Positions 12,659-32,708 of a stretch of DNA of 64,000 nucleotides are shown piece after piece; the stretch's first letter is position 1, and each line of letters begins with the position of its first letter. The stretch is from an uncultured virus (IMG/VR IMGVR_UViG_3300031133_000402) (taxonomy: Duplodnaviria > Heunggongvirae > Uroviricota > Caudoviricetes), in IMG/VR virus record IMGVR_UViG_3300031133_000402. One strand, 5' to 3'. A program made the position numbers and the translations under genes. The notes under the pieces are model-generated. The model had not been told where the DNA came from and did not search any database. It saw only the letters and a list, made by a program, of their open reading frames with translations.

Positions 12659-12701
12659 GGTCCGGGTCTCCGGAGGGTCGCGCCGAGGTCGGGGATTTGC
12701 A

Positions 12702-15359: not shown

Positions 15360-15390
15360 CTCCTTTTCGGGTTGGGTGCACCGTCACGCG

Positions 15391-16876: not shown

Positions 16877-17005
16877 GTCTCTCTCCCCTGCCGTCCCGTC
16901 GGGACGATTTTTCCCCTGCCTCGCAGGATCACGCTCATGCCTTCCAGGAACGTGAAGAGAACGACGTGGGAGGGAGTGCCTTCCACGTCGTTGCATCGGC
17001 TTGGC

Positions 17006-17305
17006 TCAGTTCCGGCCGCGGCTCATGCGCGCGACGACTTCGTCGAACGCCTCGTAGATCGTCCGATGCCGCTCGCCGTCGCGCATGGCGCCGGTCTGGT
17101 CGGCGACGCTGCCGACGTACCAGCCGCCCTCGATGAAGCACACCATGGCCAACGGCCTTCCCGCTTCGGTCTCCCCGTCGCGGTGGATGGTGATGCGGTC
17201 GCCGCCGGTGTCCTCGGGCAGGTCGTGCCGAGCCTCGAGACCGAGCTCGTCGAGCGTCGGCAGGATCTCGGCCCAGCGGCGGAGGATGACGGGATCGTAT
17301 GCCAT
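17006..17305 (-). CDS. hypothetical protein
   Basis: 99-aa ORF with AAGGA RBS. Confidence 0.55.
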   Translation of the reverse strand: MAYDPVILRRWAEILPTLDELGLEARHDLPEDTGGDRITIHRDGETEAGRPLAMVCFIEGGWYVGSVADQTGAMRDGERHRTIYEAFDEVVARMSRGRN

Positions 17306-17340
17306 TTCGCAAATCCTTGTCTGGGTGGGGTGTCGTGGTG

Positions 17341-18135: not shown

Positions 18136-18201
18136 GCCTTTTCCCCCGTCATCGCGGATTCCACCTCCGCACTACGCCTTCGGGCCGCAGCCGGGCACCC
18201 G

Positions 18202-19407
18202 TCAGTCCCGCGCGTGCTTCGTTTCGAGATAGCGTCGCCCGTTCGCCAACTCGTCGCGCAGCATGGCGCTGCGTAGCGCGATGGCGGTCTCGAGTCTCGC
18301 GGACAGGATGTCGCAGCTCTCCGAGAAGTCGCGGTCGATCTGCGCGACGTCGGCCGCGACCGCGTGCCGCCGCGCCATGCGCCAGCGCGATTCGATGTCG
18401 TCGACGTCGTGTCCGCAGGCGGCGTCCGCGTCCATGGCCATCGTCTCGTCGATCAGACGCGGACCGTTGATCCAGACGCGCCCGAGGCGCCGTACCTTCT
18501 GCGCAGGGGACCCCGCGTCGGCCTCGTCGCCGGATTCGACGATCGGCGTCAAGGCGTCGGCGTATGGGGTGGACTCGTCGACCGTCCCGGTGTCGGCCGC
18601 CTGCCAATGCGGAATGGCGTCCCCGTCAGGTGCGAAGCCCGCGGGGTCCAGGCCGAGATCCACCGCCATCGTCGCGATCGTCCGGATCACCGGGCACAGG
18701 AACACGACGAATTCGTGGTATTTCGCGCCGCCTCGGGCACGTAGACGATCGATTACCCGCGGAGCGTTGTGCTCGAGATCACGCGCACGTGCCTCCATGC
18801 TCTCCGCCGGGGCCAGTGCATCGTTCGGACCCACCATTCCGGACGGCCTGGTTCCCGTCATCGCCGTGATGACTGCGTCGGATTCGTCCAGCATGCGCTG
18901 CAGCGCTGGCCTGTTCTGGGGTTCGAGACCCGAGCGTGCGGCCTCGACGAGCGCGTCGATGAGCCTTTCGACCACGGTCGGATCCATGCCCGAAGGCAAC
19001 GCCAGGGTCCGACGATCGTATTTGCCGAGATCCATCGCGATGGTCAGGTTGATGCCGATCGAGCCGAAGAACATGGCGACGACGAATCCAAGCATGACGG
19101 ACGCCAGCGTCATGCCGATGCTCGCTCCCGCTTGCAAGGTGAGCAGGAAGCCGATCATCGGGCAGATCCAGAAGGGCCAGAACGTCATCGCGCGGGCGAT
19201 CCGCGTGCCCCTGTGCGACCGGCGGATCGCCTTCGCGTTGTTGGGATCGTGGGCGACCGCCGCGTCGATCTGCTCGAACGGATACATCGGTTCCCTGGGC
19301 CGCTTCTTGCGGACGCGCTTCTTCGGAGGCTTCGGCGTTGCTCCGACGGCGGCCACCGTCAGGGAGTTCGCGTAAGTGGTCGCAGTTTCGGGTGCATGTT
19401 TTGCCAC
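18202..19407 (-). CDS. membrane protein with XpaC-like helical C-terminus (family D)
   Basis: Two TM helices, ends DELANGRRYLETKH; start uncertain (GTG 19407 or ATG 19287). Confidence 0.6.
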   Translation of the reverse strand: MAKHAPETATTYANSLTVAAVGATPKPPKKRVRKKRPREPMYPFEQIDAAVAHDPNNAKAIRRSHRGTRIARAMTFWPFWICPMIGFLLTLQAGASIGMTLASVMLGFVVAMFFGSIGINLTIAMDLGKYDRRTLALPSGMDPTVVERLIDALVEAARSGLEPQNRPALQRMLDESDAVITAMTGTRPSGMVGPNDALAPAESMEARARDLEHNAPRVIDRLRARGGAKYHEFVVFLCPVIRTIATMAVDLGLDPAGFAPDGDAIPHWQAADTGTVDESTPYADALTPIVESGDEADAGSPAQKVRRLGRVWINGPRLIDETMAMDADAACGHDVDDIESRWRMARRHAVAADVAQIDRDFSESCDILSARLETAIALRSAMLRDELANGRRYLETKHARD

Positions 19408-19432
19408 GGAGGTGGTCCTTGCATTTGACGTA

Positions 19433-20086
19433 TTATTCGGTGACGGTCCCAGGCGCGGGAGGGAACGTGAACGGATCGTCGATCCTGTTCTCGCACCACA
19501 GCTCGTATCCCTCGGGAAGGTAGGCCCACATCGCTCCCGGCGCGTCGCGCCATGCCTCCTCGATGCCGTCGTGATCGAGCACCTCCGTTCCGGTCCAGTA
19601 GCCGATTGTCGCGCCGCTGCCGTCCTCGAACAGCGTGACGACGCGTCGACCCTCTTCGGGCCGTGCGGCGTCCGACCAGTGCCATGGCGACGGCGCGCGC
19701 CGGTCCTGCAGTGCCGCGATGGCCGCGCGCAACGTTTCGGCGTGACCGCCCAGCGCGTGGACGAAGCCGTTCCTGTCGATGCCGTCCGCGAAGTCGCCGA
19801 GATCGGCGACGATGTCGTCCACGGGAACCGCCGCTTCCGCAGCGCTGGCATCGACTGCGGCGGTCTCCTGCGCGGAGTCATCGCCCTTGCTCGTGATGCC
19901 GAGCAGCGTGCAGATCAGATCCGCGACCGAATCGATGACGCCGTCCACGGGCACCTGGTGGTCCACGTTTCCGTACCGGTCCTTGTCCCAGTCGCGCGGC
20001 CATCCGACGAAGCGGTCCGTCAGTTGGCGGTCCACCATCGCGATGACCTCGTCGCGCGTGGTGGGCCTGGTGGCTGCTTCGGTCAT
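19433..20086 (-). CDS. hypothetical protein (phage-like)
   Basis: Start MTEAATRP, ATGA overlap; W...RPEEGRRV...WAYLP motif. Confidence 0.6.
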   Translation of the reverse strand: MTEAATRPTTRDEVIAMVDRQLTDRFVGWPRDWDKDRYGNVDHQVPVDGVIDSVADLICTLLGITSKGDDSAQETAAVDASAAEAAVPVDDIVADLGDFADGIDRNGFVHALGGHAETLRAAIAALQDRRAPSPWHWSDAARPEEGRRVVTLFEDGSGATIGYWTGTEVLDHDGIEEAWRDAPGAMWAYLPEGYELWCENRIDDPFTFPPAPGTVTE

Positions 20087-20739
20087 GGTCGTGCTCCCTG
20101 TCGGTGGCGTGCGTCGGCGCTGCGGTCTCGTGCGGGCAGCAATGCCGTGAGGTCGTATCTCGTCAGGACGGTCTGCCCCCGTGGGCGTATCAGTGTGAAG
20201 AACTCGGCCTGGACGGCGTCGTGGATGACGAGGTCCATCGCGTCCAGTGCCGGGTGCGAGATCACGTCGCGCAACGGCCGCCCGGCGAGTCCCTGAACGA
20301 CGCTGTCGGGGAGATGCCCCAGCGAGATCACGCCGTCCGCGTTTTCGCCCGCCAGATCGTCGCTTCGATGCATGTTGCCGCCGTACCGGGAGTCCGAATG
20401 CCACTGCACGCCCTGCGCACGATCGACGCAGACCGATGCCCATCCCTGGTACCCCATCGACACCAGACCGACATCGTCGTCCGTGCGTATCGTCAGAGGC
20501 GACGCCATGGGCGCCGCGTAGCACATGACGGCGGGATTGATGCCATTGTGGAGCAGGAGACCCGCCGTCAGCGTGTCGGTGGCCATCTTGCACCACATCA
20601 ACTGCAGGTCGTAGCGTATCTTGGCGTCGAGATCCGCCGGAACGTCTCCGGCGAGATGGTCTATGAAGCGATCCGCGTCCGGATAGCCCTTGTCGTGCAG
20701 CCCATCCAGGGTTGCTTGGAACATTTTCAAGTCCCGCAT
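20083..20739 (-). CDS. GRPL-domain family protein (subtype C)
   Basis: LLLHNGINPAVMCYAAPM...LPDSVVQGLAGRPLRDVISHPALD. Confidence 0.75.
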   Translation of the reverse strand: MRDLKMFQATLDGLHDKGYPDADRFIDHLAGDVPADLDAKIRYDLQLMWCKMATDTLTAGLLLHNGINPAVMCYAAPMASPLTIRTDDDVGLVSMGYQGWASVCVDRAQGVQWHSDSRYGGNMHRSDDLAGENADGVISLGHLPDSVVQGLAGRPLRDVISHPALDAMDLVIHDAVQAEFFTLIRPRGQTVLTRYDLTALLPARDRSADARHRQGARP

Positions 20740-20779
20740 CCTCTTCCCGTCATGGCCAGCCTCCCCGAGCCGGCCGCCG

Positions 20780-21085
20780 TCATCCGACCGGTGGATGCGG
20801 ATCGGTGGCGTCGGGTTCGGGGTTTTCTCCGCTCTTCAGCGATTCCAGCTCCTCCCTCAGCGATCGGTTCTCTCGCAGCAGTCGCATGGCGCTTCTCAGC
20901 AGCCGGTCGTCCGGGTGCACGCCACGCATGCGCTGCCGGCTCTCCACGATCTGCCAGTTCTCCCGCAGCGCGAGGCGCTGCCGATGGATGCGCAGATCCA
21001 GCTTCAGGCGCATGTCGGTCGGCATGTCCCGTCGGTCCGGCGCGAAGGCCGGACCGACGTCGAGTGGCTCGGGATCGTTCCTCAT
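20780..21085 (-). CDS. hypothetical coiled-coil protein
   Basis: Start MRNDPEP, ATGA overlap, LLRENRSLREELESLK. Confidence 0.5.
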   Translation of the reverse strand: MRNDPEPLDVGPAFAPDRRDMPTDMRLKLDLRIHRQRLALRENWQIVESRQRMRGVHPDDRLLRSAMRLLRENRSLREELESLKSGENPEPDATDPHPPVG

Positions 21086-22227
21086 GCCGCCGCCTGGGCG
21101 TCTGCTGCCATCGCCGCGAGGAGCGCGGGCAGCGCCGCCAGCACGTCGCGTTCCGTACCCGCCGCCACCTGGTTGAGGAACGATTTCGCGGACGCGTCCG
21201 TGGCCATCGACGCGATCTTGCGCTTCTCGGCGGCCGCCTCGACCATGTTGGCGAGACGCGCGCCCTCCGCACGCAGATCGTACACCTCGGGCGTCTCGGG
21301 CTCGACGGCTGCCGTCTCGTAGCCGTTCTCCGTGCGCCAGGCGAGGCGGCGGCGGGCCTCCTCGGCCTTCCACTGGTCGTCGTGCCAGCCGGGATTTGCG
21401 GCGACGTACAGCCGCCAGCCGTCCCACCACTTCGCATCGTAGGGCAAGGGCTCGCCGCCTTCGGCGATCGCCCAGGCGCGGTAGGCCTCGTACTTCTGAC
21501 CCGCCTGCACGCCCGAGACGCCGTCGTAGTGGTTCGCCAGCAGTCCGTGCTCCGTCCGCAAGGCGTCCAGATCCCAGATGCCCGCGTCGCGGATGCGCTT
21601 GGCGACGGGGCCTTGCGGCATCTGCCCGCGCCTGATCATCGACCAGACGGCGCAGCCCCAGCGCGGGTCCTTGACCCAGTGGCGGTACACGTCCTCGATG
21701 TCCTCGTACGTGGCGTCCTCGGAATCCGAGCAGCCCCAGGCGAACACGTCCGAGCAGTCGACGCCGAGGTGGAGCGTCTTGCGGGCGTCCTTGGGCCACG
21801 CGGCCATCCAGTGGTGGGAGTTGAGGTGCACGACCTCGTTGATGAGCAGCAGCGCCAGGCCCTTGGCCTCCTCGAAGACCTCCTCGCGCTCGGGCTTGTC
21901 GGGATACTTGCGCGTGCCGTCCTCGTTGCGCTGGCTCCAGTCCATGATCCAGATCGCCTGATCGGGCGTGACCACGTGGGTGTTGGGATCGATCTGGTGC
22001 GCGACCGCGAACAGGGCCGGCAACGCGTCGCCCTTGACGACCTTTCGCGCGGTCGCCGCCAGCTTCTCCAGCGCGTCGGTGTCGTGGTCCGCGAGACGCA
22101 CGCCCGACTGCAGAAGTCCGGCCACGAGGGCCTGGTCGTCCGCGTTCGCGATCGCGTCGCAAAGCGCCGCGTCCAGAACGTCGGCGGGATCGGTGAGCTT
22201 CACGCTCGTGGTGATGATGTCGTTCAT
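21082..22227 (-). CDS. hypothetical protein, Trp-rich
   Basis: 381-aa ORF with strong GC3 bias and GGAG RBS. Confidence 0.7.
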   Translation of the reverse strand: MNDIITTSVKLTDPADVLDAALCDAIANADDQALVAGLLQSGVRLADHDTDALEKLAATARKVVKGDALPALFAVAHQIDPNTHVVTPDQAIWIMDWSQRNEDGTRKYPDKPEREEVFEEAKGLALLLINEVVHLNSHHWMAAWPKDARKTLHLGVDCSDVFAWGCSDSEDATYEDIEDVYRHWVKDPRWGCAVWSMIRRGQMPQGPVAKRIRDAGIWDLDALRTEHGLLANHYDGVSGVQAGQKYEAYRAWAIAEGGEPLPYDAKWWDGWRLYVAANPGWHDDQWKAEEARRRLAWRTENGYETAAVEPETPEVYDLRAEGARLANMVEAAAEKRKIASMATDASAKSFLNQVAAGTERDVLAALPALLAAMAADAQAAA

Positions 22228-22257
22228 GGTGTGATTGCTCCGCGACGGAAGGGATCG

Positions 22258-22291
22258 GCCACCGGATGCGTCCGTCGTCGCATCCGGTGGC
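22258..22291. terminator. intergenic 13-bp perfect hairpin
   Basis: gccaccggatgcg-N8-cgcatccggtggc between two minus-strand genes. Confidence 0.5.
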
Positions 22292-22299
22292 TCGTTCCG

Positions 22300-22614
22300 T
22301 CAGACCGCGAGCGGCTTGGCCTCGTCGCGCGCGGCGATCAGCGCGGCCTTGCGCTCCTTGGCCTCGCCCAGCTCCTCCATGAGCGCGTTGGCGTCCCGCC
22401 GCATCACCCACAGTCCGCACTGCAGGCCGTCGGCTGCGTGGCGGTGGTGATCTGCGGACAGGCCGAACTCGCGCCGCTTGCGGCGATGCTCGGCGATCTC
22501 CAGCCGTCGCGCGCGGATCTCCTGCGAGATCTCCTTGTAGCGCATGCGCCAGTCGGCGCGGTAGGAGAGCCAGGAGACGCGGTCGTTGATGTCGGTGATC
22601 ATGTTCAGGTCCAT
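22300..22614 (-). CDS. hypothetical protein
   Basis: 104-aa helical ORF. Confidence 0.6.
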   Translation of the reverse strand: MDLNMITDINDRVSWLSYRADWRMRYKEISQEIRARRLEIAEHRRKRREFGLSADHHRHAADGLQCGLWVMRRDANALMEELGEAKERKAALIAARDEAKPLAV

Positions 22615-22699
22615 TTCGAAGAGAGGTCTCGCGCGGGGTCCGATTGTGCCGGCGACGGGACGCGTCCGCGCGAACTCGCGCGTGCCGTCCCGGCTGCGA

Positions 22700-23056
22700 T
22701 CAGGCCGCCATGGGCAGACCCTCCCGACCGGCGATCGCCTTGACGATCGCGCGGCCTCTCTTCTCGATGTTCTTGTACTTGATCTTGAACGACGTCGACT
22801 CGATGCCGCCGAACATGCTCGCGTTGGCGGTCACCTCGGCGAGACCCGTCAGCAGCAGCGCCTCCGCCTCCGGACGCATGGCGAACGCCTCGACGCCCTC
22901 GCCCTTCAGCAGGTGGACGTCCATGTCCGATGCGATCAGGTGCGCGACCTCTTCGCAGCCACCCGCCTCCCGCCACACGCGCGCGGAGACCGCCGCGTGG
23001 TCCGGAAAGTGCTGGCGGCCGTCCTCGTCCACGGTTCTGCATGCCGGCTGGCCGCA
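22700..23056 (-). pseudogene. C-terminal half of split HD-domain gene
   Basis: CGQPACRTVDEDGRQHFPDHA...NASMFGGIESTSFKIK aligns with the C-half of 23157-23807; homology stops at 23056. Confidence 0.85.
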
Positions 23057-23110
23057 GTTTATCTGCACACCTACCCGCCCATTCAGCGTAATGCCGAGGG
23101 GAAACGGGTA

Positions 23111-23132
23111 GTGGACACATTTATGTGTCCAC
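23111..23132. repeat. perfect 10-bp inverted repeat near island end
   Basis: GTGGACACAT-TT-ATGTGTCCAC. Confidence 0.7.
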
Positions 23133-23156
23133 GGGGTGCCGCTGGGGTGTCCGGGG

Positions 23157-23807
23157 TCACGCTGCTTCACGAGCGTCCTCCCAGTTCATCGCGGCGACGA
23201 CCTGGCGGCCTCGCTTGTCGAGGTGCTTGGCCTTGATCTTGAAGCCGTCGCTTTCGACGCCGCCGAACATGGCGGCGTTCGAGTGGACCTCGGCGAGGGC
23301 GGTAAGGAGAAGGGTGGTCGCTTCGGGACGGGAAGCGAACTCGGCAATGCCCTCTGCCTTCAGGAGGTGGGCGTCCATGTCCATGCCCATGAGGCGCGCG
23401 GCCACCGGGTTGCCGCCTACGGCCAGCCATACCTGTTCGGATGCCTTGGCGTGTCCTGGGAAGTGGCGACGGCCGTCCTCGTACACCTGCAGCACGATCG
23501 GCTTGGAGCAGTCGTGGTTCAGGATGTACTCCTCGACGACATCGAGGGGCATGAGGAGGTCGATCAGTCCTGGGGTGTATGCCCACTGCGGGACGCGCCA
23601 CCAGCTGGGCAACGAGGTGCCGCTGGTGAAGTGGTCATGCAGTAGCCGGAAGTGATCCCAGACGGAGACGCCGTGTTCGAGGACGGTCTGAGTGGGGGTC
23701 TGGAGACAGGTCGTCATGGCCGCGCGCACGCGTTCCATGGTCCAGTCCAGATAGGGGTTCGACGGCTTGGTGTCGAAGGTATCGATGCATTCGTATTCTT
23801 CTGCCAT
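23157..23807 (-). CDS. intact HD-domain protein carried by the island (may begin at mini-ORF ATG 23850 via +1 recoding)
   Basis: TVLEHG...YILNHDCSKP...RHFPGHA HD-type motifs; frame open back to the CAT-TGA-C leader. Confidence 0.8.
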   Translation of the reverse strand: MAEEYECIDTFDTKPSNPYLDWTMERVRAAMTTCLQTPTQTVLEHGVSVWDHFRLLHDHFTSGTSLPSWWRVPQWAYTPGLIDLLMPLDVVEEYILNHDCSKPIVLQVYEDGRRHFPGHAKASEQVWLAVGGNPVAARLMGMDMDAHLLKAEGIAEFASRPEATTLLLTALAEVHSNAAMFGGVESDGFKIKAKHLDKRGRQVVAAMNWEDAREAA

Positions 23808-23860
23808 AGGCAGTGCGGGCTTACCGTTTAGGTCAATGGCTCATGGTCATGATACTTCCT
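23796..23860 (-). promoter_or_regulatory. conserved leader A: SD + mini-ORF MTMSH* ending CAT-TGA-C
   Basis: 45/55 nt identical to the leader before PTH2 (28493-28547). Confidence 0.75.
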
Positions 23861-23887
23861 ATTTTTTAATAAAAATGACTGCACCTG

Positions 23888-23915
23888 AGAATACCGGAAT
23901 CTACTCGTTATTCAA
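23888..23915 (-). promoter_or_regulatory. putative sigma70-like promoter TTGAAT-N16-TATTCT
   Basis: Same architecture (TTGAA.-N16 ending CGG-TA) as 28598-28625. Confidence 0.45.
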
Positions 23916-23978
23916 GTTGTTTTATCATGAAAGCCCAGTTCGTGCACTTATCGGCTCGTTGCCTCGGTTCTGGGGCTG

Positions 23979-24191
23979 CTATGCACTTTTCATATCGTGC
24001 ATGCGAGCAGGCGCAGTGGAGACTGACGACTGCTCCGGTGTGTACGAAAGGGACAGCGAGACCGCCAACAGCCCTAGGATCGCGACAAACGCACCTGTCA
24101 GTCGCCCAGTCTCGCTAGCCATCACCATCGTTGCGACGCCGATGACCGCCATGATGGCCCCAATGATCAATGATGCGACTGGCATGCTCAT
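23979..24191 (-). CDS. small two-TM membrane protein (island)
   Basis: Two hydrophobic segments. Confidence 0.55.
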   Translation of the reverse strand: MSMPVASLIIGAIMAVIGVATMVMASETGRLTGAFVAILGLLAVSLSLSYTPEQSSVSTAPARMHDMKSA

Positions 24192-24361
24192 GTCTTGTTA
24201 CCTTTTTGAATTGTCACGTCTTATCGATTCGTTGGTGTCGAATCGCAATTCATATCGTCGCCAGAATGGGTGGATATGTCGTACTTGTCTGCGCCAGGGA
24301 TTCCCGACGTTTTTCATCTGATACGCCGTCAGTAATGCGAGTTTTCCCATGTCACCTCGTT

Positions 24362-24712
24362 CTATGTTGCGCTTATCGTGGGTTTTATGGCCACTTTTTC
24401 GAGCAACATGCCGATCAGGGTCAGGGCAGAGACCGAGTCGACGACCTGAGCGTCGGAATCGCTCTGGTCGTTGGCATGGCATACGCTCAGGGTCAGACAA
24501 TGTGAGCCACCATCCTGTCCTGTGAAATCGCAATCAAAGCATTCGTATCCGGCGAAATGTCTTCCTGCGATGTCAAAGGTCGTCGATTCGGTCGGGCCGA
24601 GACGACGTATGTCGTCGACATGATTCGTAAGCCATGCTTCGATCTCCATCTTCAGGGTCGCCAGTCGTCCTTCAAGATTCTCAGGGGGGAGAAGGATCGT
24701 AGTATAGGACAA
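24362..24712 (-). CDS. hypothetical protein (island)
   Basis: 116-aa ORF; start uncertain. Confidence 0.5.
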   Translation of the reverse strand: MSYTTILLPPENLEGRLATLKMEIEAWLTNHVDDIRRLGPTESTTFDIAGRHFAGYECFDCDFTGQDGGSHCLTLSVCHANDQSDSDAQVVDSVSALTLIGMLLEKVAIKPTISAT

Positions 24713-24763
24713 TAGTCATATTATGTTCGGCACCTTCTCAAACCCTCTGTATATTTGAGAGCA

Positions 24764-24940
24764 TTATTTGCGGAAAATGTCCACTATTGCCGCGATTGCA
24801 CAGATTGCCGCTATGGGAATCGCGATCCACAGAGGCATGTTGAAGCCATCGATCACAGTTACGTAACTGTCACCTTTCGATATGGCCTCCCATACGAAAA
24901 AGCACAGGACAATTGCGATAACGACATTGATAAGCTTCAT
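24764..24940 (-). CDS. small two-TM membrane protein (island, 58 aa, below ORF-track cutoff)
   Basis: Hand-translated MKLINVVIAIVLCFFVWEAISKG...PLWIAIPIAAICAIAAIVDIFRK; AAGGA RBS. Confidence 0.55.
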   Translation of the reverse strand: MKLINVVIAIVLCFFVWEAISKGDSYVTVIDGFNMPLWIAIPIAAICAIAAIVDIFRK

Positions 24941-25083
24941 CTATAATTCCTTAACTCACAATCTAGTCATACTATCTGGTGGCGAGATGTTAATTACCAC
25001 ACGATAATGTATGAAGCATTTAATCTATAAGATCACAGCCAAACGGAAACTTAAGACTTTTGGCATTCTATGCATTTTGGGGT

Positions 25084-25440
25084 TTATGATTCGGAGTCAT
25101 CCTGGCGCGCCAGCTTCATGGAGACAGATCCGTTTTCGATCATTCCGATCTCCTCGAACACGAGTTCCCTGAGCACGTCGAAGCGCACGCTCCAGTCAAC
25201 CTCTTGCTGGAAGATGGCCGACAAGGCCTCGATGACCTCGTGCCATTCACGCAGGTACGTGGCGCTGCATGAGCTTCGGAGGGCACGACCGGTCCAGCCT
25301 CGAGCGGCGCGGTACCATTCATGCGCCGACGGTCCTTCAGCAGATTCCTGTGCCGACTGCAGGAGGTCCATGCACTGGTCGGCCGTCAGGGCGCCCGCTT
25401 CCATCTTCTCCATCTCGATTTCGAGAGTCATGTTTTCCAT
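25084..25440 (-). CDS. hypothetical protein (island)
   Basis: 118-aa acidic helical ORF. Confidence 0.55.
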   Translation of the reverse strand: MENMTLEIEMEKMEAGALTADQCMDLLQSAQESAEGPSAHEWYRAARGWTGRALRSSCSATYLREWHEVIEALSAIFQQEVDWSVRFDVLRELVFEEIGMIENGSVSMKLARQDDSES

Positions 25441-25604
25441 CCATAAAGTGAATACACCAATTGGGACTCATCATAGATCTGGACTCATTAGCTTTCGAAG
25501 GATCGCTCTCTGGAACATTCTGAAGGTCAATCGGGATTGAATTTCACCGCCATATTTTTAAGGAAGTTCGTGTGGACGACGGCTAATATATCAAATATAT
25601 ATTA

Positions 25605-26267
25605 TCAACCGTTATTAATCATCCTATTTACCCTGTAATTCACTGCCCATTTGAAGGATTTCATGTTAAATTCGTATTCATCAATGTCCTGTCCGTACAG
25701 GGACAGCATCGATTTTGATTCCTTTACCAAGTCGGTGTTGAATGATTCGAATCCGCCATCCTCGCCGGCCACTTCAGCAGTAAGAGGCAGCATAATCTCG
25801 ATCATCTTTGCCAACTCGATCAAGGCAGCGTCCTCGTAAATGCCTTCGGATGCATTCATCCCGTCATGGATCAATTGCACGCGGCGCTGGTGATCGCTGG
25901 TGTTCTCATCACTGCATTTTGGTACTATCACCACTGGAGTACGGTCCGCATCGCCATCTCGAAATATTTCACCTGCGTCGTCGTTTATGACGGAGGCATA
26001 GATCTTCGCCGGTTGGCCTACGCCGTCCGGGTTCCTCAAGACCGCCTTCAGAAGTGCATCAAAGAGTTTCGGCCCATTCTTGTCGACCAACCTTGCCGCG
26101 TTCATGCCGTTGCCGACCAAATTCACGATCTCACTGTGATCTTCCGCGGTCTGACCATCACGGCGCGGGACAATCACCAAGGCCTTTGCGTTCTTATCCT
26201 TATTTCGATAGATTTTCGCGCTATGCGTTTTGCATCCGTAGGCGGTATGCTCATTGACATAGTACAT
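25605..26267 (-). CDS. hypothetical protein with internal duplication (island)
   Basis: AKIYRNKDK..ALVIVPRRDGQTAEDH...GMNAA vs GEIFRDGDA..PVVIVPKCSDENTSDH...GMNAS. Confidence 0.65.
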   Translation of the reverse strand: MYYVNEHTAYGCKTHSAKIYRNKDKNAKALVIVPRRDGQTAEDHSEIVNLVGNGMNAARLVDKNGPKLFDALLKAVLRNPDGVGQPAKIYASVINDDAGEIFRDGDADRTPVVIVPKCSDENTSDHQRRVQLIHDGMNASEGIYEDAALIELAKMIEIMLPLTAEVAGEDGGFESFNTDLVKESKSMLSLYGQDIDEYEFNMKSFKWAVNYRVNRMINNG

Positions 26268-26517
26268 AGGTTGTATACCCCTATCTTAATTGAATACTGA
26301 GAACACACATGTCCTGGTGATTAGCGCCCTAATGGCACCATTTTAGGTAAACTTCTCGTAGTCGCGGGTGCATCGAACTCGAAGATTTACCCGAGTGTAT
26401 TGCAATACCGTTGTAGAGTTTGTTTAACCTGGTGAATAGGTAAACTTGGTCTTTAGAAGAGCCACCCCCATTGTCGTGATCAATTTTGTCACCTTCATTT
26501 TAATCGCCTGTTTACTT

Positions 26518-26928
26518 CTATGCGTCATCCCTGTCGACGACGGTAATCAGGCAGTGATCAACGCCGTCGACGTCATGGCGCGAGACACGCACATCATTGC
26601 CGAACAGGCAGCAGATATCACCGTTGTCTGCGAGCAGCTTCAGCGGGATATCCATGCCGATCTCATCGGCCAACTGCATGGCGGTGATTGGCCGGTCAGA
26701 TTTTGAGATGCTCGAGTCGATTTCCACCCGGAATACGTCGATGCAACCGTAGGACGTTTCCGTTCCGGGCTTTCCATCGAACGACGTCTGAGCGACATCG
26801 AGGTGAAAGTCCTTATGGAAATCGTTGTCCATCACACGGATGACAACCGGGATCCCGCCATAGGGCATAAGAATGTTCTTCATGTGTTCGGCTGTGACGA
26901 ACTTATCGGTATATGGCGGAATACTCAT
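26518..26928 (-). CDS. hypothetical protein (island)
   Basis: 136-aa ORF with AAGGA RBS. Confidence 0.6.
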   Translation of the reverse strand: MSIPPYTDKFVTAEHMKNILMPYGGIPVVIRVMDNDFHKDFHLDVAQTSFDGKPGTETSYGCIDVFRVEIDSSISKSDRPITAMQLADEIGMDIPLKLLADNGDICCLFGNDVRVSRHDVDGVDHCLITVVDRDDA

Positions 26929-27372
26929 TGTTTCGTCCTTTGTATTGCGTGATAATATTATGTCAGAAGCAGTGCTCTTATATTTTTCCTGTTGCAGTAT
27001 TTAGACGTCGCTTGTAATGCCAATCGGGCCTGCTCCACCTTTTCACGCCTCATTTCTTCAGCGATATTCGAGTTCGAGACTTACCTCGTATTTGTCATGC
27101 TGTGATCATATTGAATTTTCTGTTTAGAAAAACGATCAACAGCGATATCACGATGAATCCGATGCACATTGTGATTATGGTAACGCTGCGAATGAGTGCA
27201 GGATCATGCGCCCCCCATTTCTGTTGCGCCATGACCATGTTCCACGGGCAACGGCGACGGACGCTGCTACGAACACCGTCGTCGAGATATCGCTAGCGGC
27301 ATAGATGGCCGTCAGTGCGTTCATAGACGGCATGATTGTCATTGCAGTTATACCGACGTCCAGTTTCTTCGG

Positions 27373-27618
27373 TCAGCCGGTCATGGTGACATTCAAGGCC
27401 GGATGATCCGGTGTGGTTGTGCCTTCGTGTTTTGTGATGATGCGAATGGTGGTCGCGACGCAGCCGGCGATCACCATCCACGCAGCCGTCATAAACAGTA
27501 AGGCAGTCGTTTCCTGAGCCCCGGGGATGGTCCACGCGATCACCAAAATGATCACCATCATGATTAATGCCGATATGTTCATTATCACTGCGCATGCAGC
27601 AAGTAATCTCTGAATCAT
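27373..27618 (-). CDS. small membrane protein (island)
   Basis: MIQRLLAACAVIMNISALIMMVIILVIAW; two TM helices. Confidence 0.55.
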   Translation of the reverse strand: MIQRLLAACAVIMNISALIMMVIILVIAWTIPGAQETTALLFMTAAWMVIAGCVATTIRIITKHEGTTTPDHPALNVTMTG

Positions 27619-27830
27619 GTCTGTCCCACGGTTTCGTTGATGACTCTCTTTAGCATTCATAGGATCGCTTTTTGCACCTAGAATGATCGGGATCGGTGCT
27701 AACCATTTCGGTCGAAGTCCGGCGAGACGTCTTTGTCACCGTTCGTGATTGCCGTCGTCGTCCTGACCCTCAGGTGCGACCAGCCTTGAGAATGCCGTGT
27801 GGATGCATCCCGAGGTGTGTTGGTAACCAC

Positions 27831-28085
27831 ATCGTGGAACAAGTGATATTTCGTCATCACGGCGTCGTCCGGCAGGAATCGCAGCACGAGGGTATCGCCC
27901 ACTCATTCCGGCAGCCGCCACTCCAGGGCGAGTGGACGTCCGTCCCTGAGGTGCCCGATCAGATCGGCGTAGTGATCCCGGACCATCTCGCCGTGCGCCA
28001 GCACGGTGAGGCCCGAGGTCTGCTCGCAGTCCTGCATTGCGGTGATGAGGCCATCCCGGGCCTCCGCGGTCATGAAGCCGCCCAT
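27831..28085 (-). pseudogene. N-terminal half of split HD-domain gene, with in-frame TGA at 27903-27905
   Basis: AMQDCEQTSGLTVLAHG...EWRLPE*VGD...YHLFHD aligns with AMTTCLQTPTQTVLEHG...WRVPQW...YILNHD; TGATG-coupled to PTH2. Confidence 0.85.
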
Positions 28086-28547
28086 CACTGCACCGCCTGG
28101 TAGCGTTTGGTGATGTGTCGGCACTGCGCCTTCGTGCACGGACCGATGCCGAGCGCGGTGATCACCGGTTCCCCGGTGAAGTGGGGCAGCAGGATGTGGT
28201 CGCGATCGGTGACGACGGCATGCGGGATGCCGGCTTCAGCGCACTCTCGCGCCGCGCGCTCGAGTTGACCGAGGTTTTTCGCCTTGATGGTGACCTTGGA
28301 ACCGCCGATCGCATTGTTGTTGCGATACGAGAGGGCGGTCTTCGGATCCTTGTCGAGACAGTCGAACAAGGCGTCCGTATATGCGTGGCCGCTCTGAGCC
28401 GAGAGCTTGCCCGCAGGCATCTCTAGGTCGGCGCGGATCAGCGCATAGATGTACAGCTTCTCGCTGTGGTCGTTGGTAACTGGGGTATTCTGTTCTTCTG
28501 CCTGAGGCAGTGCGGTCTCACCGTATTGGTCAATGGTTCAGGTACAT
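28085..28547 (-). CDS. pth2: peptidyl-tRNA hydrolase, PTH2 family; 5' end requires +1 recoding or a non-canonical start
   Basis: YIYALIRADLEMPAGKLSAQSGHA...SKVTIK...VVTD...TALGIGP are PTH2 motifs; the first strand lies upstream of the first in-frame ATG (28420), with no ATG/GTG/TTG before the in-frame TGA at 28538-28540. Confidence 0.85.
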
Positions 28548-28560
28548 GTCGTATTCCTTG
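28493..28560 (-). promoter_or_regulatory. conserved leader B: SD (AAGGA) + mini-ORF MYLNH* ending CAT-TGA-C
   Basis: 45/55 nt identical to leader A. Confidence 0.75.
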
Positions 28561-28597
28561 CTTGAGTGGTGACGTCGCGGACGATCCGCTTCGTCGG

Positions 28598-28625
28598 ATG
28601 TTACCGCTTTTCGGGCGGATTTCAA
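28598..28625 (-). promoter_or_regulatory. putative sigma70-like promoter TTGAAA-N16-TAACAT for pth2-HD
   Basis: Consensus-like hexamers about 50 nt upstream of the mini-ORF. Confidence 0.45.
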
Positions 28626-28637
28626 TAAACTCTTTTC

Positions 28638-28816
28638 GGTTCTCCGGATTATCGGGTTGAAGCCTGAAGTCTTCTAACCGATCCGGTTCTCCGGGGCCCT
28701 GCCGAAGGAGGGCTTGCCGGCGTTTCCGAAGCGAGCCGGGCCAACGCCCAGGCTTTCCTGTGACGGACCTTGCGGTCCGCACGCTCCTCTCGGGTCGAAC
28801 CCCGAGACGGCGGCCG
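28638..28816 (-). ncRNA. putative omegaRNA/reRNA scaffold of tnpB copy 1
   Basis: Several hairpins (UUCG, GCAA loops) 3' of tnpB, with compensatory changes versus copy 2. Confidence 0.7.
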
Positions 28817-30214
28817 TCAGGCCGCCAGAAGTCCGCGCTGCAACACAATGCAAGCGGCGTTGTGGTCCGCATCGAGATCGGCGCCGCAGGAGCAGACGTA
28901 TCTGCTTCCGCGTCTGGCGCCAGGCTCCCGTTCGCCGCAGAGCGAACAGTCGTTGGATGAGTTCATGGGATCCACGGACATGACTCTGCCACCGGCGCTT
29001 GCAGCCTTGTAGCGCATCATTCCGTAGAGGATGGATATTCCAGCATCGTTCATGGCGCGGTTGAGACCACGCTTCTGGGCGACGTTGACGCCGGGCTCGG
29101 TCACCGTGCCGGTGGCCGATCGTGTCATGTTCTTGAGCTTGAGAGCTTCGACGACATTCGTCTCGGCGGCGGTGACCACGTCCTTCGAGACCTTGTGGTG
29201 ATGCGTGCGCCGCCTGTTGGCGGTGGCGTTCCTGGCGCGTGAAAGCGCACGCTTGGCCTTGTTACGACCATGGCTTGCCCGCTTGCAGCGGGCAAGCGCA
29301 CGCGCCAAGCGACGCGTTTCCGGTGCGTCTGCTTTCAGGAACTTCGGATTCTCTACGAAGGTCCCGTCGTCGAACGTCAAGAGACGACGGACGCCAGCGT
29401 CCATACCGCGCACTGTACCAGGTTTGGCATGTGTAGTGGCTACATCGTTGCACTCGCATACGATGCTCGCCCACCAGAACCGTCCATCGTAGGTAAGACG
29501 TACCGTCTTTGCCATTCCCGGCAGATCCCGGTGCATGCGCATGCTCATAGCCCCGTGCCAGAGCAGGGGTGCTTTGAGTTTATCACCGTCAATACTTATG
29601 CCACTTCCAATAGGGCAACCGATCGACCGAACGCGGTCATAAGACTTAAAACGCGGAAAGCCGGGGGTCTTTCCAGCTTTCACGCGCTCGAAGAACGCAT
29701 CCATCGCATTGTGCACGATGTCGACGTGATCTCGAAGCACTTCCAGGGGAATCCGACCGATCCCATCGGGATCGTTCTGTCGGATCAGCGCAAGGCGACG
29801 GTAGTGATCGGCCTTCGATACTGGTCGACCGAAGGATTCGGCAGTCCTGGGTCGCCAGGGGATCGGGTTCAAACCCATCGGATCGGCCTTGGGATCGCCT
29901 GCGGCGATCCTCGGACGGAGCTTGGCGATGCGACGGGCCTCCGACTGCGCGTGACGCCGGCGCAGATCCGATTCCTGACGCACCTGCCAAGCCAGGAATT
30001 CGACGATCTCCTCCTGGCGAACCAAAATCCAGTCTGCCGCAATAGGTTTGTCTCGACCTTGCCGCGCCGCTACGCGGCGCGCTGCTGCATACGAATCCCT
30101 GAGTTCCTGAAGACACGCATTGCGCAATTGCATCAAATGCCAACGCACACCTCTCAAGCTCGCATACATCGCGGTGCTAAGCTTGAGTTTGTGACGTGCG
30201 GTGCGAACCTGCAT
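28817..30214 (-). CDS. tnpB: TnpB RNA-guided endonuclease (465 aa)
   Basis: GFPRFK; RuvC-I GMDAG; RuvC-II VVEALK; CSLC/CSC zinc finger; RuvC-III DADHNAA. Confidence 0.92.
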   Translation of the reverse strand: MQVRTARHKLKLSTAMYASLRGVRWHLMQLRNACLQELRDSYAAARRVAARQGRDKPIAADWILVRQEEIVEFLAWQVRQESDLRRRHAQSEARRIAKLRPRIAAGDPKADPMGLNPIPWRPRTAESFGRPVSKADHYRRLALIRQNDPDGIGRIPLEVLRDHVDIVHNAMDAFFERVKAGKTPGFPRFKSYDRVRSIGCPIGSGISIDGDKLKAPLLWHGAMSMRMHRDLPGMAKTVRLTYDGRFWWASIVCECNDVATTHAKPGTVRGMDAGVRRLLTFDDGTFVENPKFLKADAPETRRLARALARCKRASHGRNKAKRALSRARNATANRRRTHHHKVSKDVVTAAETNVVEALKLKNMTRSATGTVTEPGVNVAQKRGLNRAMNDAGISILYGMMRYKAASAGGRVMSVDPMNSSNDCSLCGEREPGARRGSRYVCSCGADLDADHNAACIVLQRGLLAA

Positions 30215-30221
30215 GGTTATA

Positions 30222-30250
30222 ATCATAGTATCGTGGTTTTGAAGCGTCAA
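30222..30250 (-). promoter_or_regulatory. sigma70 promoter TTGACG-N17-TATGAT, leaderless tnpB start
   Basis: -35 overlaps the left TIR; ATG is 7 nt after the -10; conserved in copy 2. Confidence 0.7.
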
Positions 30251-30275
30251 CCTGATAATCCGCAGAACCCTCTTT

Positions 30276-30491
30276 TCACGACCAGCCGTTGATCACGGCC
30301 ATCCACATTCCGAGCCCCACGGACGTCGCCATGCTCGTCAGGAACAGCACCGTGCTGATGGCTTCCGCCACCCTAGGATGCGTCTTTCCGTAGCGTGCCT
30401 TGGCGTGGCCCGCGAGCGTCACCAGACCCATCGCGACGGCCGCCATGCAGGCGAGTGCCGCCACGCTGATGGCGAAGGTGGCTATTGTCAT
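30276..30491 (-). CDS. small two-TM membrane protein
   Basis: Hydrophobic ORF; its stop codon overlaps the TSD. Confidence 0.6.
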   Translation of the reverse strand: MTIATFAISVAALACMAAVAMGLVTLAGHAKARYGKTHPRVAEAISTVLFLTSMATSVGLGMWMAVINGWS

Positions 30492-30545
30492 CCTGTGCTC
30501 TCCTGGTGTGCGGCATGCGGCCTGCTCGTGGTCGAACCTCCCGCT

Positions 30546-30728
30546 CTAGAGCAGGACCGAGTGTGGAAACGCCGACCTGACGATGTCGAAGTCCGCGCGG
30601 TCCTCGTCCGCGACGACGCATCCCTGGGGGCTGACGATCTTGCCGTTGCGGAACGAGGTGAAGCCTCTCGCCGACAGGCGCTCATGCGCCTCGTCCGCGG
30701 CTCTTTGTCCGAGGGTGCGTTCCTTCAT
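30546..30728 (-). CDS. small hypothetical protein
   Basis: AAGGA RBS, packed gene train. Confidence 0.45.
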   Translation of the reverse strand: MKERTLGQRAADEAHERLSARGFTSFRNGKIVSPQGCVVADEDRADFDIVRSAFPHSVLL

Positions 30729-30731
30729 GGC

Positions 30732-30941
30732 CTAGGTCCTTCCGGGTAGAGCGTCGTTGTGCTGCCGCACGATGCTCTCGGCGACCGCCTGTGCCGCCTC
30801 CGGCGACAACCAGCCGCCCGTGACCCGCACGGTCGCGTCGTGGATCGTGTCGAGGTTGCCCTCCGCTCCGACGCACCACACGCCGTCCAGTTTGCGAGCC
30901 GACCAGGGTTCCACGAGATCTTCGATATGCTTTCCGGCCAT
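30732..30941 (-). CDS. small hypothetical protein
   Basis: 69-aa ORF, GGAG RBS. Confidence 0.5.
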   Translation of the reverse strand: MAGKHIEDLVEPWSARKLDGVWCVGAEGNLDTIHDATVRVTGGWLSPEAAQAVAESIVRQHNDALPGRT

Positions 30942-30954
30942 CAGTCCGCTCCCG

Positions 30955-31281
30955 TCACTTCGCCTGCCGCGCCCGCATCGCCGCGCGCGCGGACACCATG
31001 CCCTGGATGAATTCGGACTTGGTGAGCGTCCCGTTTCCGTTCGCGTCCATGTCCCGCCATCCCTGCGGCTTCACCAGCACGCCGAGATTGCGGCTGGCGC
31101 CGTAGGCGCTGAGCTCGGTCTTCGTCATCCTGCCGTTCCGGTCCGCGTCGACCCGGTCGAAGATGATGGAGAGCTCCTTGACGTCGAGCTCGGTCGGCAC
31201 CGGCACTGGCGCTGGCGCTGTCTGCCCCGATGCCACGGTGCCGGTCGTGAGCGCGATGGCGGCGATCAGGAAGTGTCGCAT
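30955..31281 (-). CDS. secreted EF-hand protein
   Basis: Signal peptide MRHFLIAAIALTTGTVASG; DADRNGRMTKTE and DANGNGTLTKSE EF-hand loops. Confidence 0.8.
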   Translation of the reverse strand: MRHFLIAAIALTTGTVASGQTAPAPVPVPTELDVKELSIIFDRVDADRNGRMTKTELSAYGASRNLGVLVKPQGWRDMDANGNGTLTKSEFIQGMVSARAAMRARQAK

Positions 31282-31384
31282 GGTTTTCAATACCCCTCGG
31301 TGGTCTGGATGGTGACGGTTTCGATCGCCGATGTCCACTCCGGCGCGACGCCCGAGCAGCCTGCCTGGTGGATCTCGGCGAACA

Positions 31385-31729
31385 TCACTGTCCGAATTCC
31401 CTCTTCAGCGTCTCGTACTGGCGCCGTCGCGCGGCGGTCGCCTCGTCCTCTTCGTCTTCCTCTTCGTCCTTTTCGTCGCTCATGAGCGCGAAGACGTCCT
31501 CCTGGCTCATCACGGTGGCGACCGTGACGATCAGGACGTGCTTGATGCCGCCGTCGGCGTCGGGATAGCCGTAGTCCTCCTGGAGCAGCTTGGCGACTTC
31601 CTTGGCGGCGTCCTCGGGCGTGGTCGCCGCGAGTGGAATCGTCTTCTCGGCGCAGCCGATGGTGTAGTCGCAACCCTCCGCCGCCTCCTTGACCACGGCC
31701 GCGTACTGTCCTGGCTTGAATGTCTTCAC
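31385..31729 (-). CDS. hypothetical protein (phage-like, acidic tail)
   Basis: EGCDYTIGC motif, ends RRRQYETLKREFG. Confidence 0.6.
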   Translation of the reverse strand: MKTFKPGQYAAVVKEAAEGCDYTIGCAEKTIPLAATTPEDAAKEVAKLLQEDYGYPDADGGIKHVLIVTVATVMSQEDVFALMSDEKDEEEDEEDEATAARRRQYETLKREFGQ

Positions 31730-31792
31730 GTCTCGGCTTCCTCGATGATTCGTACTTGCGTTGTGGATCCCGTCATTCGCGCGGCGGGAGTG

Positions 31793-31954
31793 CTAGACCC
31801 TCTCGGGTCGCCGACCCTTCATGTAGCGCTTGTACGGCTCGTAGCCGGAGACGAAGTGCGCACCGGCGCCGAGATGCTTCAGAAGTCGGGAGCCGAGGAT
31901 GCGACCGTTGCGCTTGGCGCGGCGGCATCCGCTGCAGGTGCATGGTTTGAACAT
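31793..31954 (-). CDS. small Cys/Arg-rich protein
   Basis: MFKPCTCSGCRR with GGAGG RBS. Confidence 0.45.
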   Translation of the reverse strand: MFKPCTCSGCRRAKRNGRILGSRLLKHLGAGAHFVSGYEPYKRYMKGRRPERV

Positions 31955-32005
31955 CTCTTTTCCCTCCTGTTGCGGTCTCGTCCGCCATTCCGTCACCCGG
32001 AACGA

Positions 32006-32341
32006 TCACGCGTAGCGACAGGTCCCGAGTCCACCGGGCAGCGCCCTCTGCTGCGCCACCAGCGTCTTGACGACCTCGTTCTCCTCGTCCGTCACGCGTC
32101 CGTCTGCGATGTACTCGTCGAGGCGGCCGGCGATCGCGGGACATCCCTTCTTGTACGAATTCACGTCGTTCACACGGACCCTGGTCTCGAAGTGGTTCTC
32201 GAATTCCACCAGTTGCCGCTCGTTCCATGCGATCATCTGCCACATCGCGATGGGGATGAGCACGATCGCCATGATCATGGCGAGCAACTGCGTCCCGTTT
32301 AGATGGACGCGTCCATCATGGTCGTTCGTCACCGTCTTCAT
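32006..32341 (-). CDS. membrane protein, family E (TM + DG.VT..E motif)
   Basis: CPAIAGRLDEYIADGRVTDEE...LPGGLGTC; paralogous to 45604-46023. Confidence 0.65.
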   Translation of the reverse strand: MKTVTNDHDGRVHLNGTQLLAMIMAIVLIPIAMWQMIAWNERQLVEFENHFETRVRVNDVNSYKKGCPAIAGRLDEYIADGRVTDEENEVVKTLVAQQRALPGGLGTCRYA

Positions 32342-32673
32342 GAGTTTCCCTCCATTGCCGGAATGATTTCGCGGTATTCGTCGGGGCCCGCGTGGGTGCA
32401 GATCCGTTTCATGCGGTCGTAGACATCCTGCGGCACGCGTTCGATCTTGTCCCTGGACAGCACGCGGCGGTAGTGGTCGGCGGCGCCGGTGCCGAGCACC
32501 GCGACCCACTTCATACCCTCGTCGAGATTGCGTTGCGGATCGCCGCGAAACCCACGGGTGTGATCGCGCGCCATGTGCTCGCGCCAGTCGGGCCGGTCGA
32601 GACGCGACACCATCCGGTGCCGGTTCGAAGTGCATCGGTAGCCGGAATCGATGAGGCGGGTCGCTTCGTCCAT
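32338..32673 (-). CDS. hypothetical protein
   Basis: Start MDEATRL with AAGGA RBS. Confidence 0.55.
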   Translation of the reverse strand: MDEATRLIDSGYRCTSNRHRMVSRLDRPDWREHMARDHTRGFRGDPQRNLDEGMKWVAVLGTGAADHYRRVLSRDKIERVPQDVYDRMKRICTHAGPDEYREIIPAMEGNS

Positions 32674-32708
32674 CGTGGTCGTCCTTTTCGTTGCGGACTC
32701 GTCCGCGA

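Follow-up and report, generated by a model that had tools for sequence, protein, structure and literature searches.

The closest described relatives of the insertion reported here are site-specific integrative elements of the SE, GInt and Tn554 types. In the sections of PMC10214605 devoted to them, SE share the core layout intA-tfp-intB-srap: at the left end come first an ordinary tyrosine recombinase, then a protein of recombinase fold that lacks the catalytic motif, then a large tyrosine recombinase and finally a small protein. They have imperfect terminal inverted repeats of 13-19 bp, are specific for their target and do not duplicate it; the target's central 6 bp lie beside the left repeat, and a 6-bp footprint of the previous location lies at attR. 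Tn554, as presented there, is alike, with two tyrosine recombinases and a small protein, target specificity, no duplication and 6 bp taken from the previous site. In the corresponding parts of PMC5385486, GInts carry an operon of three integrase-like genes and a small gene (ginABCD), cargo and a short 3' end; they insert site-specifically into a gene, have imperfect flanking repeats of 10-17 nt, generate att variants by a 6-nt staggered exchange, and share one target even when distantly related. Here we describe an insertion within 64,000 nucleotides of DNA from an uncultured virus (IMG/VR record IMGVR_UViG_3300031133_000402; this whole stretch is the window below), which interrupts a gene with an HD (His-Asp) motif and carries an intact, diverged paralogue of it. 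To our knowledge, elements of the three types are poorly understood and few of their movements have been documented.

With a probability of about 0.7, we assign the insert, as a member that lacks a recombinase, to a family of site-specific integrative elements that is SE/GInt/Tn554-like in organisation and junctions. An original prediction, made from the letters of the window, had proposed a satellite-like or site-specific element; the analysis now supports, in addition, the kind of element, an autonomous-looking relative, a recurrent 6-bp site in two clades of target genes, the footprints and the origin of the rescue gene.

A split HD gene and its empty site

The window has a guanine-plus-cytosine (GC) content of 0.65-0.70 and nearly all of its genes lie on the minus strand. 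The features of the locus are the following.

28085-28563, minus strand: resident PTH2 peptidyl-tRNA hydrolase gene with its leader (28420-28085 as called; Pfam PF01981, E 1e-13)
27827-28085, minus strand: N-part of the resident HD gene, with an in-frame TGA at 27905-27903 and the HD codons at 27836-27831
27813-27826, minus strand: left terminal inverted repeat TTACCAACACACCT, 11/14 matched to the right end
27661-27812, minus strand: left non-coding stretch, GC 0.55 (166 bp including the repeat)
23867-27660, minus strand: low-GC cargo, ~3.8 kb, GC 0.49, with eight small co-oriented open reading frames (ORFs)
27660-27373, minus strand: cargo ORF of 95 aa, membrane
27238-27095, minus strand: cargo ORF of 47 aa
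26928-26518, minus strand: cargo ORF of 136 aa
26267-25605, minus strand: cargo ORF of 220 aa
25440-25084, minus strand: cargo ORF of 118 aa
24940-24764, minus strand: cargo ORF of 58 aa, membrane
24712-24362, minus strand: cargo ORF of 116 aa
24191-23979, minus strand: cargo ORF of 70 aa, membrane
23833-23866, minus strand: leader of the paralogue, with a Shine-Dalgarno-like AGGAAG and a mini-ORF at 23850-23833
23157-23837, minus strand: intact HD paralogue, its frame opening at ATT 23837, with ATGs at 23807 and 23738
23111-23132, minus strand: conserved hairpin (9-bp stem and tetraloop) at the 3' end of the element, common to the related locus L013
23059-23072, minus strand: right terminal inverted repeat AGGTGTGCAGATAA, with the terminus GTGTGCnGATAA common to L013
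23053-23058, minus strand: 6-bp footprint ACTGCG, differing from the target's own ATGTGG
22700-23052, minus strand: C-part of the resident HD gene, with a CAG codon (23050-23048) at the position of a Lys in 54/54 aligned homologues

As predicted, the resident HD gene is broken right after its His-Asp codons into an N-part (28085-27831), ending in ...YHLFHD, and a C-part (23056-22700), starting with CGQPACRT..., which lie 4,774 bp apart and rejoin in frame. In blastp alignments, residues 1-85 of the N-part correspond to residues 2-86 of full-length homologues and residues 1-118 of the C-part to residues 87-204 of the homologue P0100, and no residue is gained, lost or duplicated across the split. 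The TGA noticed in the N-half in place of a Trp falls in an invariant W column of our alignment A4, which comprises 54 homologues and has 32 invariant columns.

Contigs of four public runs (including X1, X3, X4 and X5) were mapped onto 18000-33000. In run X1, which may be a source of the DNA, 22899-27888 is spanned with 0 differences by a 4,990-base Logan contig that has both junctions inside; since it was assembled independently of the window, the insert is not an assembly artefact. Over 14,354 bases, the JGI contig of locus L012 likewise matches the window at 100% identity. A 2,962-base contig of run X5, whose organism label is a different one, joins 20714-23041 to 27827-28449 via 11 letters, the four bases 27827-30 fitting by identity. 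Its flanks differ from the window at 57/2,328 and 15/623 positions, and it holds the uninterrupted allele that was sought: an HD gene of exactly the expected length, which reads HD-VGKPA. The insertion is real and polymorphic. The paralogue too is missing from the empty allele, so the insert did not arise by duplicating the resident gene.

Neither an empty-site joint nor a circle joint is seen among the contigs of X1, and in X3, X4 and X5 some of the island is without contig cover, but contigs can show neither absence nor rare forms. Word depth in X1 is 292 for the island contig 22899-27888 and 378-382 for the flanking contigs, a depth of contigs that does not equal copy number, and the X1 contigs break inside both halves of the resident gene; there are hints of a population minority with another allele at the HD locus. 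In run X4 and loci L015-L019, flanks 98% identical to the window enclose an HD gene whose central part is strongly divergent (a type-2 allele, about 73% alike in amino acids). X4 departs from the window at 22928 and 27894, and the letters between translate like the type-2 allele, which suggests that strains exchange this central part by recombination and that the locus is a recombination hot spot.

An insertion at a catalytic motif, rejoining in frame after an upstream exon that ends in T, also recalls a self-splicing intron or another spliced intervening sequence. Against this, at least eight ORFs and an entire paralogue lie in the insert, a stop codon lies in the resident gene, and cmscan detects no Rfam family, group I and II introns included, at E<=1 in 22000-31000, apart from a chance snoRNA match. 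We consider splicing hardly conceivable.

The junctions are written here on the gene's strand. The empty allele in X5 reads CACG-ATGTGG-GCAAACC; the left junction of the window reads CACG-ATGTGG-TTACCAACACACCT... and the right junction ...AGGTGTGCAGATAA-ACTGCG-GCCAGCC. The left 6 bp (27832-27827, ATGTGG) are thus the target's own central 6 bp, identical to those of the empty allele, and a target-site duplication is absent, as had been claimed. Because GTGG follows the HD codons in insert and empty allele alike, the boundary is ambiguous by 4 nt. A 4,768-bp element (27826-23059) accompanied by a 6-bp footprint (23058-23053) is the better reading; an insert from 27830 to 23057, between the HD codons and TGC, is less favoured because it would have to begin, by coincidence, with the GTGG of the closest alleles. 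The predicted position after the HD motif therefore stands, while the exact boundaries move by 4 nt into the 6-bp footprint model.

The imperfect inverted ends sharing CACACCT that had been noticed are borne out as the core of 14-bp imperfect inverted repeats, matched at 11/14 positions (63 of 20,000 random regional pairs are as good, ~0.003). The left repeat directly follows the target's 6 bp; the right one lies 6 nt inside the right junction. ACTGCG occupies the same register in the type-2 alleles L015-L019, in L020-L021 and in the paralogue carried by L013 (all CACG-ACTGCG-). The right junction of L013 itself reads ...CTGTGTGCCGATAA-ACGTGG-GCAAACC: its footprint equals or nearly equals the same register of other HD alleles, and the flank right after it is unchanged. 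Judged by their identity to other alleles, the footprints would derive from earlier insertion sites, and both junctions of the window, as well as the right junction of L013, fit the 6-bp rule of SE and Tn554.

Recurrent insertion and a relative with recombinases

We collected 67 loci, namely 56 metagenome loci (a contig scan with the C-part), 8 viral and 3 genome loci. The HD|xGK junction is uninterrupted in 59 of them and too near an edge in 3; another 3 (L011, L054 and L055) have an intact junction with an in-frame TAG 17 codons upstream, and 2 are interrupted, L012, which is the window's own sequence, and L013. The three TAG-bearing loci lie on contigs of 25% GC, with the one in-frame TAG in the HD gene and TAA ending the neighbouring frames; TAG may be recoded in this low-GC phage-like contig.

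L013, whose contig shares its metagenome prefix with that of L015, has a backbone 97.2% identical to the window (989/1,017) and a C-part that begins VGKPA, like X5, yet it carries a different insert at the same nucleotide. The last ~0.8 kb of this insert align with the window's, through the leader, the HD paralogue (77% aa), the 9-bp hairpin and the terminus GTGTGCnGATAA-AC; farther upstream it is unrelated to the cargo of the window. Two further cases come from proteins. Homologues of the paralogue gave 225 hits; among the 120 of them listed, the motif is intact in 118. Two, P0047 and P0050, which are known from protein only, instead open with a 32-residue read-through of an L013-type right end (...CV(P/A)IN), continue with CAKP(I/L)VLQ... 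and proceed as the C-half of a paralogue-type HD gene. A second clade of target genes thus has this terminus directly at the same codon.

Four distinct insertions, in the window, L013 and the contigs of P0047 and P0050, thus sit at one position after the HD codons, in two target-gene clades and with two diverged element types. They support an element family that is specific for one position of the HD gene, and the other insertions at the same codon anticipated by the original prediction are found. Its own counter-scenario, an origin by tandem duplication or by recombination with variable boundaries, fails, as the boundaries are identical to the nucleotide. The paralogue is moreover just about 50-56% identical to the resident, which speaks against tandem duplication, and the recurrence of position and terminus in L013, P0047 and P0050, together with the terminal inverted repeat, speaks against any one-off illegitimate event, such as the capture by end-joining of foreign DNA at a break. 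An insert without a recombinase and a cargo of foreign composition would suit such an event, which we nonetheless judge very improbable.

It is less improbable, though still unlikely, that the inserts of the window and L013 go back to a single old insertion, their content having diverged later by recombination between elements, with no repeated targeting. Both inserts lie in type-1 alleles on 97.2% identical backbones, and the difference between their footprints at 3/6 positions could in principle be mutation at paralogue-level divergence. The resident C-halves argue otherwise: between window and L013 they differ by 15 synonymous and 2 non-synonymous changes (synonymous divergence, dS, 0.20; non-synonymous divergence, dN, 0.008; ratio 0.04), and the window's resident gene keeps 29/32 invariant residues. 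It must therefore have been selected for most of the time since the backbones split. The two paralogues are far more diverged (dS 0.84, dN 0.155, dN/dS 0.18). X5, on an equally close backbone, has an empty site, and the L013-type terminus recurs in P0047 and P0050, in another clade of targets. With elements so much more diverged than their hosts, the simplest account of these sequences is two separate insertions, recent and independent.

Homing offers another way to reach one site: a nuclease hidden in the cargo would cut uninterrupted HD genes, repair would copy the island, and the diverged paralogue would be immune. The target comprises the most conserved codons; 4 extra mismatches within 11 nt beside the right junction resemble a co-conversion tract; and the centre of the HD gene does vary between near-identical strains, as where X4 diverges at 22928 and 27894. 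But no nuclease family is found in the insert's 17 ORFs, L013 bears wholly different cargo at the same site, and homing is not marked by terminal inverted repeats, a 6-bp footprint or a recombinase module such as the relative has. We rate homing as improbable.

The recombinase module in question occupies the upstream part of the L013 insert, in the order of a tyrosine recombinase gene cut by the locus edge and genes for 695-, 676- and 165-aa proteins, followed by two small genes. The first product matches PF00589 (E 5e-5), with R...HxxR...H...Y visible in its translation. The 695-aa protein, without a Pfam match, has ~600-aa 'integrase family' clusters as nearest neighbours in the Atlas (feature score 0.99, TM 0.66-0.72, a lead only). 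The 676-aa protein matches PF00589 weakly; its R327, K370, R469, H493 and Y503, the catalytic set of tyrosine recombinases, are invariant in an alignment of eight sequences. The same order of four genes (385, 603, 624 and 170 aa) is also annotated on the Bradyrhizobium plasmid pBBta01. Full-length relatives of the large recombinase, at 24-28% identity, occur in 50 plasmid records, mostly alphaproteobacterial, and 8 of 401 Sphingomonadaceae genomes hold a distant one (22-32%). The layout matches intA-tfp-intB-srap and resembles ginABCD and Tn554, and by its gene content L013 is an autonomous-looking relative of the window element.

Described differences remain. Core synteny of SE is confined to Gammaproteobacteria in the sections of PMC10214605 that treat it, whereas relatives of the L013 module lie on alphaproteobacterial plasmids, and no SE with a paralogue of its target is described there; all four SE core genes are missing from the window element. 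In GInts, per the relevant passages of PMC5385486, the catalytic genes are ginA and ginB, with ginC degenerate, while in L013 it is the middle gene that has no Pfam match; the 3' end of our element is not AT-rich and holds a gene. The present case widens the range of the four-gene recombinase layout to alphaproteobacterial replicons. Tn554, an element of Firmicutes, lacks an equivalent of the middle protein and is not known to replace the gene that it targets.

In contrast to L013, the window copy has no recombinase. Its 17 ORFs give no recombinase, nuclease or defence-family match in Pfam and PADLOC (0/18 proteins matched by the latter), and tblastn with the four proteins of the L013 recombinase module finds no hit across the 64-kb window; the original prediction had likewise recognised no integrase. 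The copy is therefore non-autonomous or decayed, in keeping with the predicted satellite-like character: it may have been mobilised in trans, or have lost its module in situ. It represents a first candidate for a recombinase-less, trans-mobilised member of such elements.

The small membrane and unknown genes foreseen in the insert correspond to the eight small cargo ORFs, of which three are membrane-like. No cargo protein matches any family at its curated cut-off. The 220-aa and 118-aa ORFs find only themselves among 5.8 billion proteins, and the 220-aa ORF has no usable Atlas hit; the 136-aa ORF has one relative at 97%, six unannotated relatives at 31-34% and, in a 662-aa protein, a single weak repeat hit. 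No relative turns up in IMG/VR when the paralogue and two cargo proteins serve as queries, and none of the fetched loci is hit at E<=0.001 in tblastx with the element's left end and cargo. A variant of the window-type cargo, ~96-97% alike, is present in run X3 (pieces 25448-25848 and 26234-27015) and in P0123, a 97% identical 136-aa protein. The lower GC of the insert holds for the cargo (0.49 against 0.65-0.68 in the flanks) but not for the 0.8-kb paralogue module (0.62).

We propose that the family integrates at one 6-bp position overlapping the Asp codon of the HD motif in PTH2-linked HD genes (CACG|NNNNNN|). Tyrosine recombinases would recognise the 14-bp imperfect inverted repeats at the element ends, and a four-gene module of the L013 type probably catalyses the integration. 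The target's own 6 bp would remain at the left junction with the footprint at the right, so that no target duplication arises and the two halves still rejoin in frame.

The putative rescue gene, its leader and its target

The insert carries an intact, diverged HD gene, as had been read from the window. The paralogue, about 50-56% identical to the resident protein, keeps 32/32 invariant family residues and, with a dN/dS of 0.18, is under purifying selection. The resident gene, read through by reference, has lost W52 (TGA), K79 (Gln) and H152 (Thr). The proposed compensation for the knockout finds support in this contrast between a selected paralogue with all invariants and a resident with a stop codon and a lost Lys, and the paralogue may substitute for the resident in function.

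How the paralogue is built suggests where it came from. Its leader (23866-23833) is homologous to the leader of the PTH2-HD operon (28563-28530): an AGGAAG is followed by the five-codon mini-ORF ATG ACC ATG AGC CAT TGA (23850-23833). The same layout is found in every close PTH2-HD operon (window, L009 and L014-L019) and in both element-borne paralogues, with AAGGAA or AGGAAG, an ATG after 6-7 nt, three variable codons and an invariant CAT TGA C (M-x-x-x-H-stop); the predicted CAT-TGA-C leader, common to resident operon and paralogue, accordingly proves invariant in the window, L009 and L013-L019. A conserved protein, IDLNGxTALP..., leading into the first PTH2 strand, lies in the +1 frame and opens at an ATT overlapping the TGA, with no ATG, GTG or TTG upstream in that frame of the leader. 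A programmed +1 frameshift or re-initiation at ATT is a candidate for frame entry; the release-factor-2 frameshift site departs from it in one base of the P-site codon. Gene callers begin PTH2 too late here (P0053, P0059 and P0063). In the paralogues, the leader and the IDLNG..ALP peptide run directly into the HD domain, so the rescue gene looks like a PTH2-HD gene with PTH2 deleted. The predicted promoter of its own is not borne out: a consensus scan gives 4 promoter-like sites where 4.7 are expected, none upstream of the paralogue, and promoter and terminator sites are no commoner than in shuffles.

No Pfam HD model matches the HD gene or the paralogue, so the label rests on fold and motif rather than on a profile. 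The invariant columns of A4 include H22, H75-D76, K79, D120, H124 and H152. An AlphaFold model of the HD domain (193 aa from 23738) has a pLDDT of 96.9. A VIA-align search against 48,161 chains returns 3wfo_A 252-447 first, from the C-terminal part of a nucleotidyltransferase that processes tRNA (Z 14.5, root-mean-square deviation 2.9, 155 aligned), a top entry with which Foldseek agrees; the HD domain of bacterial GlyRS beta comes second (Z 11.0), then PhnZ, PgpH, PPX/GppA and many HD proteins. By predicted fold and motif, target gene and paralogue belong to the HD-domain metal-dependent phosphohydrolase superfamily.

The HD gene is fused or adjacent to PTH2 in L004, L005, L009, L010, L014-L019, P0053, P0059, P0063 and P0093. 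The HD gene may act at tRNA 3' ends, probably in tRNA-end processing. The family is present in 29 phage records (180-635 kb) and 7 plasmid records (0.69-1.32 Mb), two of the latter being, by accession and organism, the two Pseudomonas megaplasmids named in a published title and abstract; among 401 Sphingomonadaceae genomes, one, that of L009, has the HD gene, and these genomes yield no further element. A PTH2-HD pair is not found described in the open-access literature on PTH with HD in jumbo phages, which is not proof of absence. The target is thus an unstudied gene pair, PTH2 with an HD domain nearest in fold to those of tRNA enzymes, carried by jumbo phages and ~1-Mb megaplasmids; that mobile elements must replace it suggests that the HD gene matters to these replicons.

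The rescue module at the right end would then consist of the PTH2-HD operon leader joined straight to the HD domain, PTH2 having been deleted, and would supply the function that insertion destroys. Prophage e14 and phage 21 in icd, and elements integrated in tRNA genes, preserve a disrupted function by duplicating the displaced 3' end only. They leave the resident whole, whereas here it is broken and a complete, ~50%-diverged paralogue with a leader is supplied. An element with a full paralogue of its target is not found described in the open-access literature on GInts, Tn554 and integrative elements with target paralogues, which again is no proof of absence. Tentatively, and with more doubt than confidence, we suggest that the family practises knock-out-and-replace: it would destroy a catalytic codon of a conserved HD gene and bring its own PTH2-stripped allele with the leader, and decay of the resident, as in the window with its stop codon and lost Lys, would make the megaplasmid dependent on it. 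If true, nature would have its own recombinase-based equivalent of cleave-and-rescue gene drives. Cutting catalytic codons while bringing a diverged paralogue is a persistence strategy unlike restoring the end of the cut gene, and would make loss of the element costly.

Since the genes split in P0047 and P0050 are of the paralogue type, which the footprint in the window matches, rescue copies would themselves be targets. If so, one element could insert into another and oust it, and copies without a recombinase could travel with autonomous ones. On near-identical backbones, the loci form a natural series: one site is empty, a single nucleotide has received two diverged elements, and footprints appear to record earlier sites.

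A number of points weigh against assigning the insert to such an element family. The sequence of L013 stops short of its left junction; that its recombinase module and paralogue form one element, with a left end like the window's, is a presumption. Its recombinase matches to Pfam score 23.6 and 19.4 bits, under the gathering score of 27.1, and phmmer of the large recombinase against the PDB gives no meaningful hit. The likeness to SE, GInt and Tn554 is drawn from organisation, junctions and published descriptions. In the window, the element is without a recombinase, none being found within the 64 kb; its cargo is ORFan, and a second copy of the window type at another site is not known. Relative to the allele of X5 and L013, 4 more mismatches lie in the 11 nt after the footprint, which a 6-bp exchange does not explain, and a circle or excision product is not seen in the contigs, which cannot show rare forms. 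Finally, the type-1 resident allele has Thr at H152, His in 54/54 aligned homologues, in both the window (22700-23052) and L013 (7001-7354), and because both share it, this allele may have been impaired or catalytically altered before insertion.

Replicon and neighbouring elements

The proteins of the window are on record within a 1.27-Mb contig, and the replicon is probably megaplasmid-like, from a leaf-surface bacterium. The nearest named relative of the locus is L009, in a Sphingomonas genome; megablast of 22000-29000 against phage records gives no match. Upstream of the insertion, the resident PTH2 gene is intact, with its own mini-ORF leader at 28547-28530. The split HD gene, which follows PTH2, belongs to PHROG family 14850 and has no Pfam match. 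At least seven paralogous genes with conserved blocks (repeat families D1-D4) lie at 5400-20300 and 54700-58900, with no Pfam or PHROG match.

A second mobile element is present in two inverted copies (28630-30269 and 46258-47900), 87% alike over 1,643 nt. This 1.63-kb element encodes a single protein, TnpB-like, with matches to PF01385 and PF07282. Its ends are terminal inverted repeats of ~23 bp flanked by 8-bp direct repeats (GAAAAGAG; CAGAAGTC in the other copy), inverted and direct repeats alike being atypical of TnpB elements of the IS200/IS605 type. The copy at 28630-30269 is missing from runs X3, X4 and X5 (joint 28629-30270; 8 letters fit either side), including the contig set of X5 that has the empty HD site, and in the window it lies ~70 nt upstream of the PTH2 leader.

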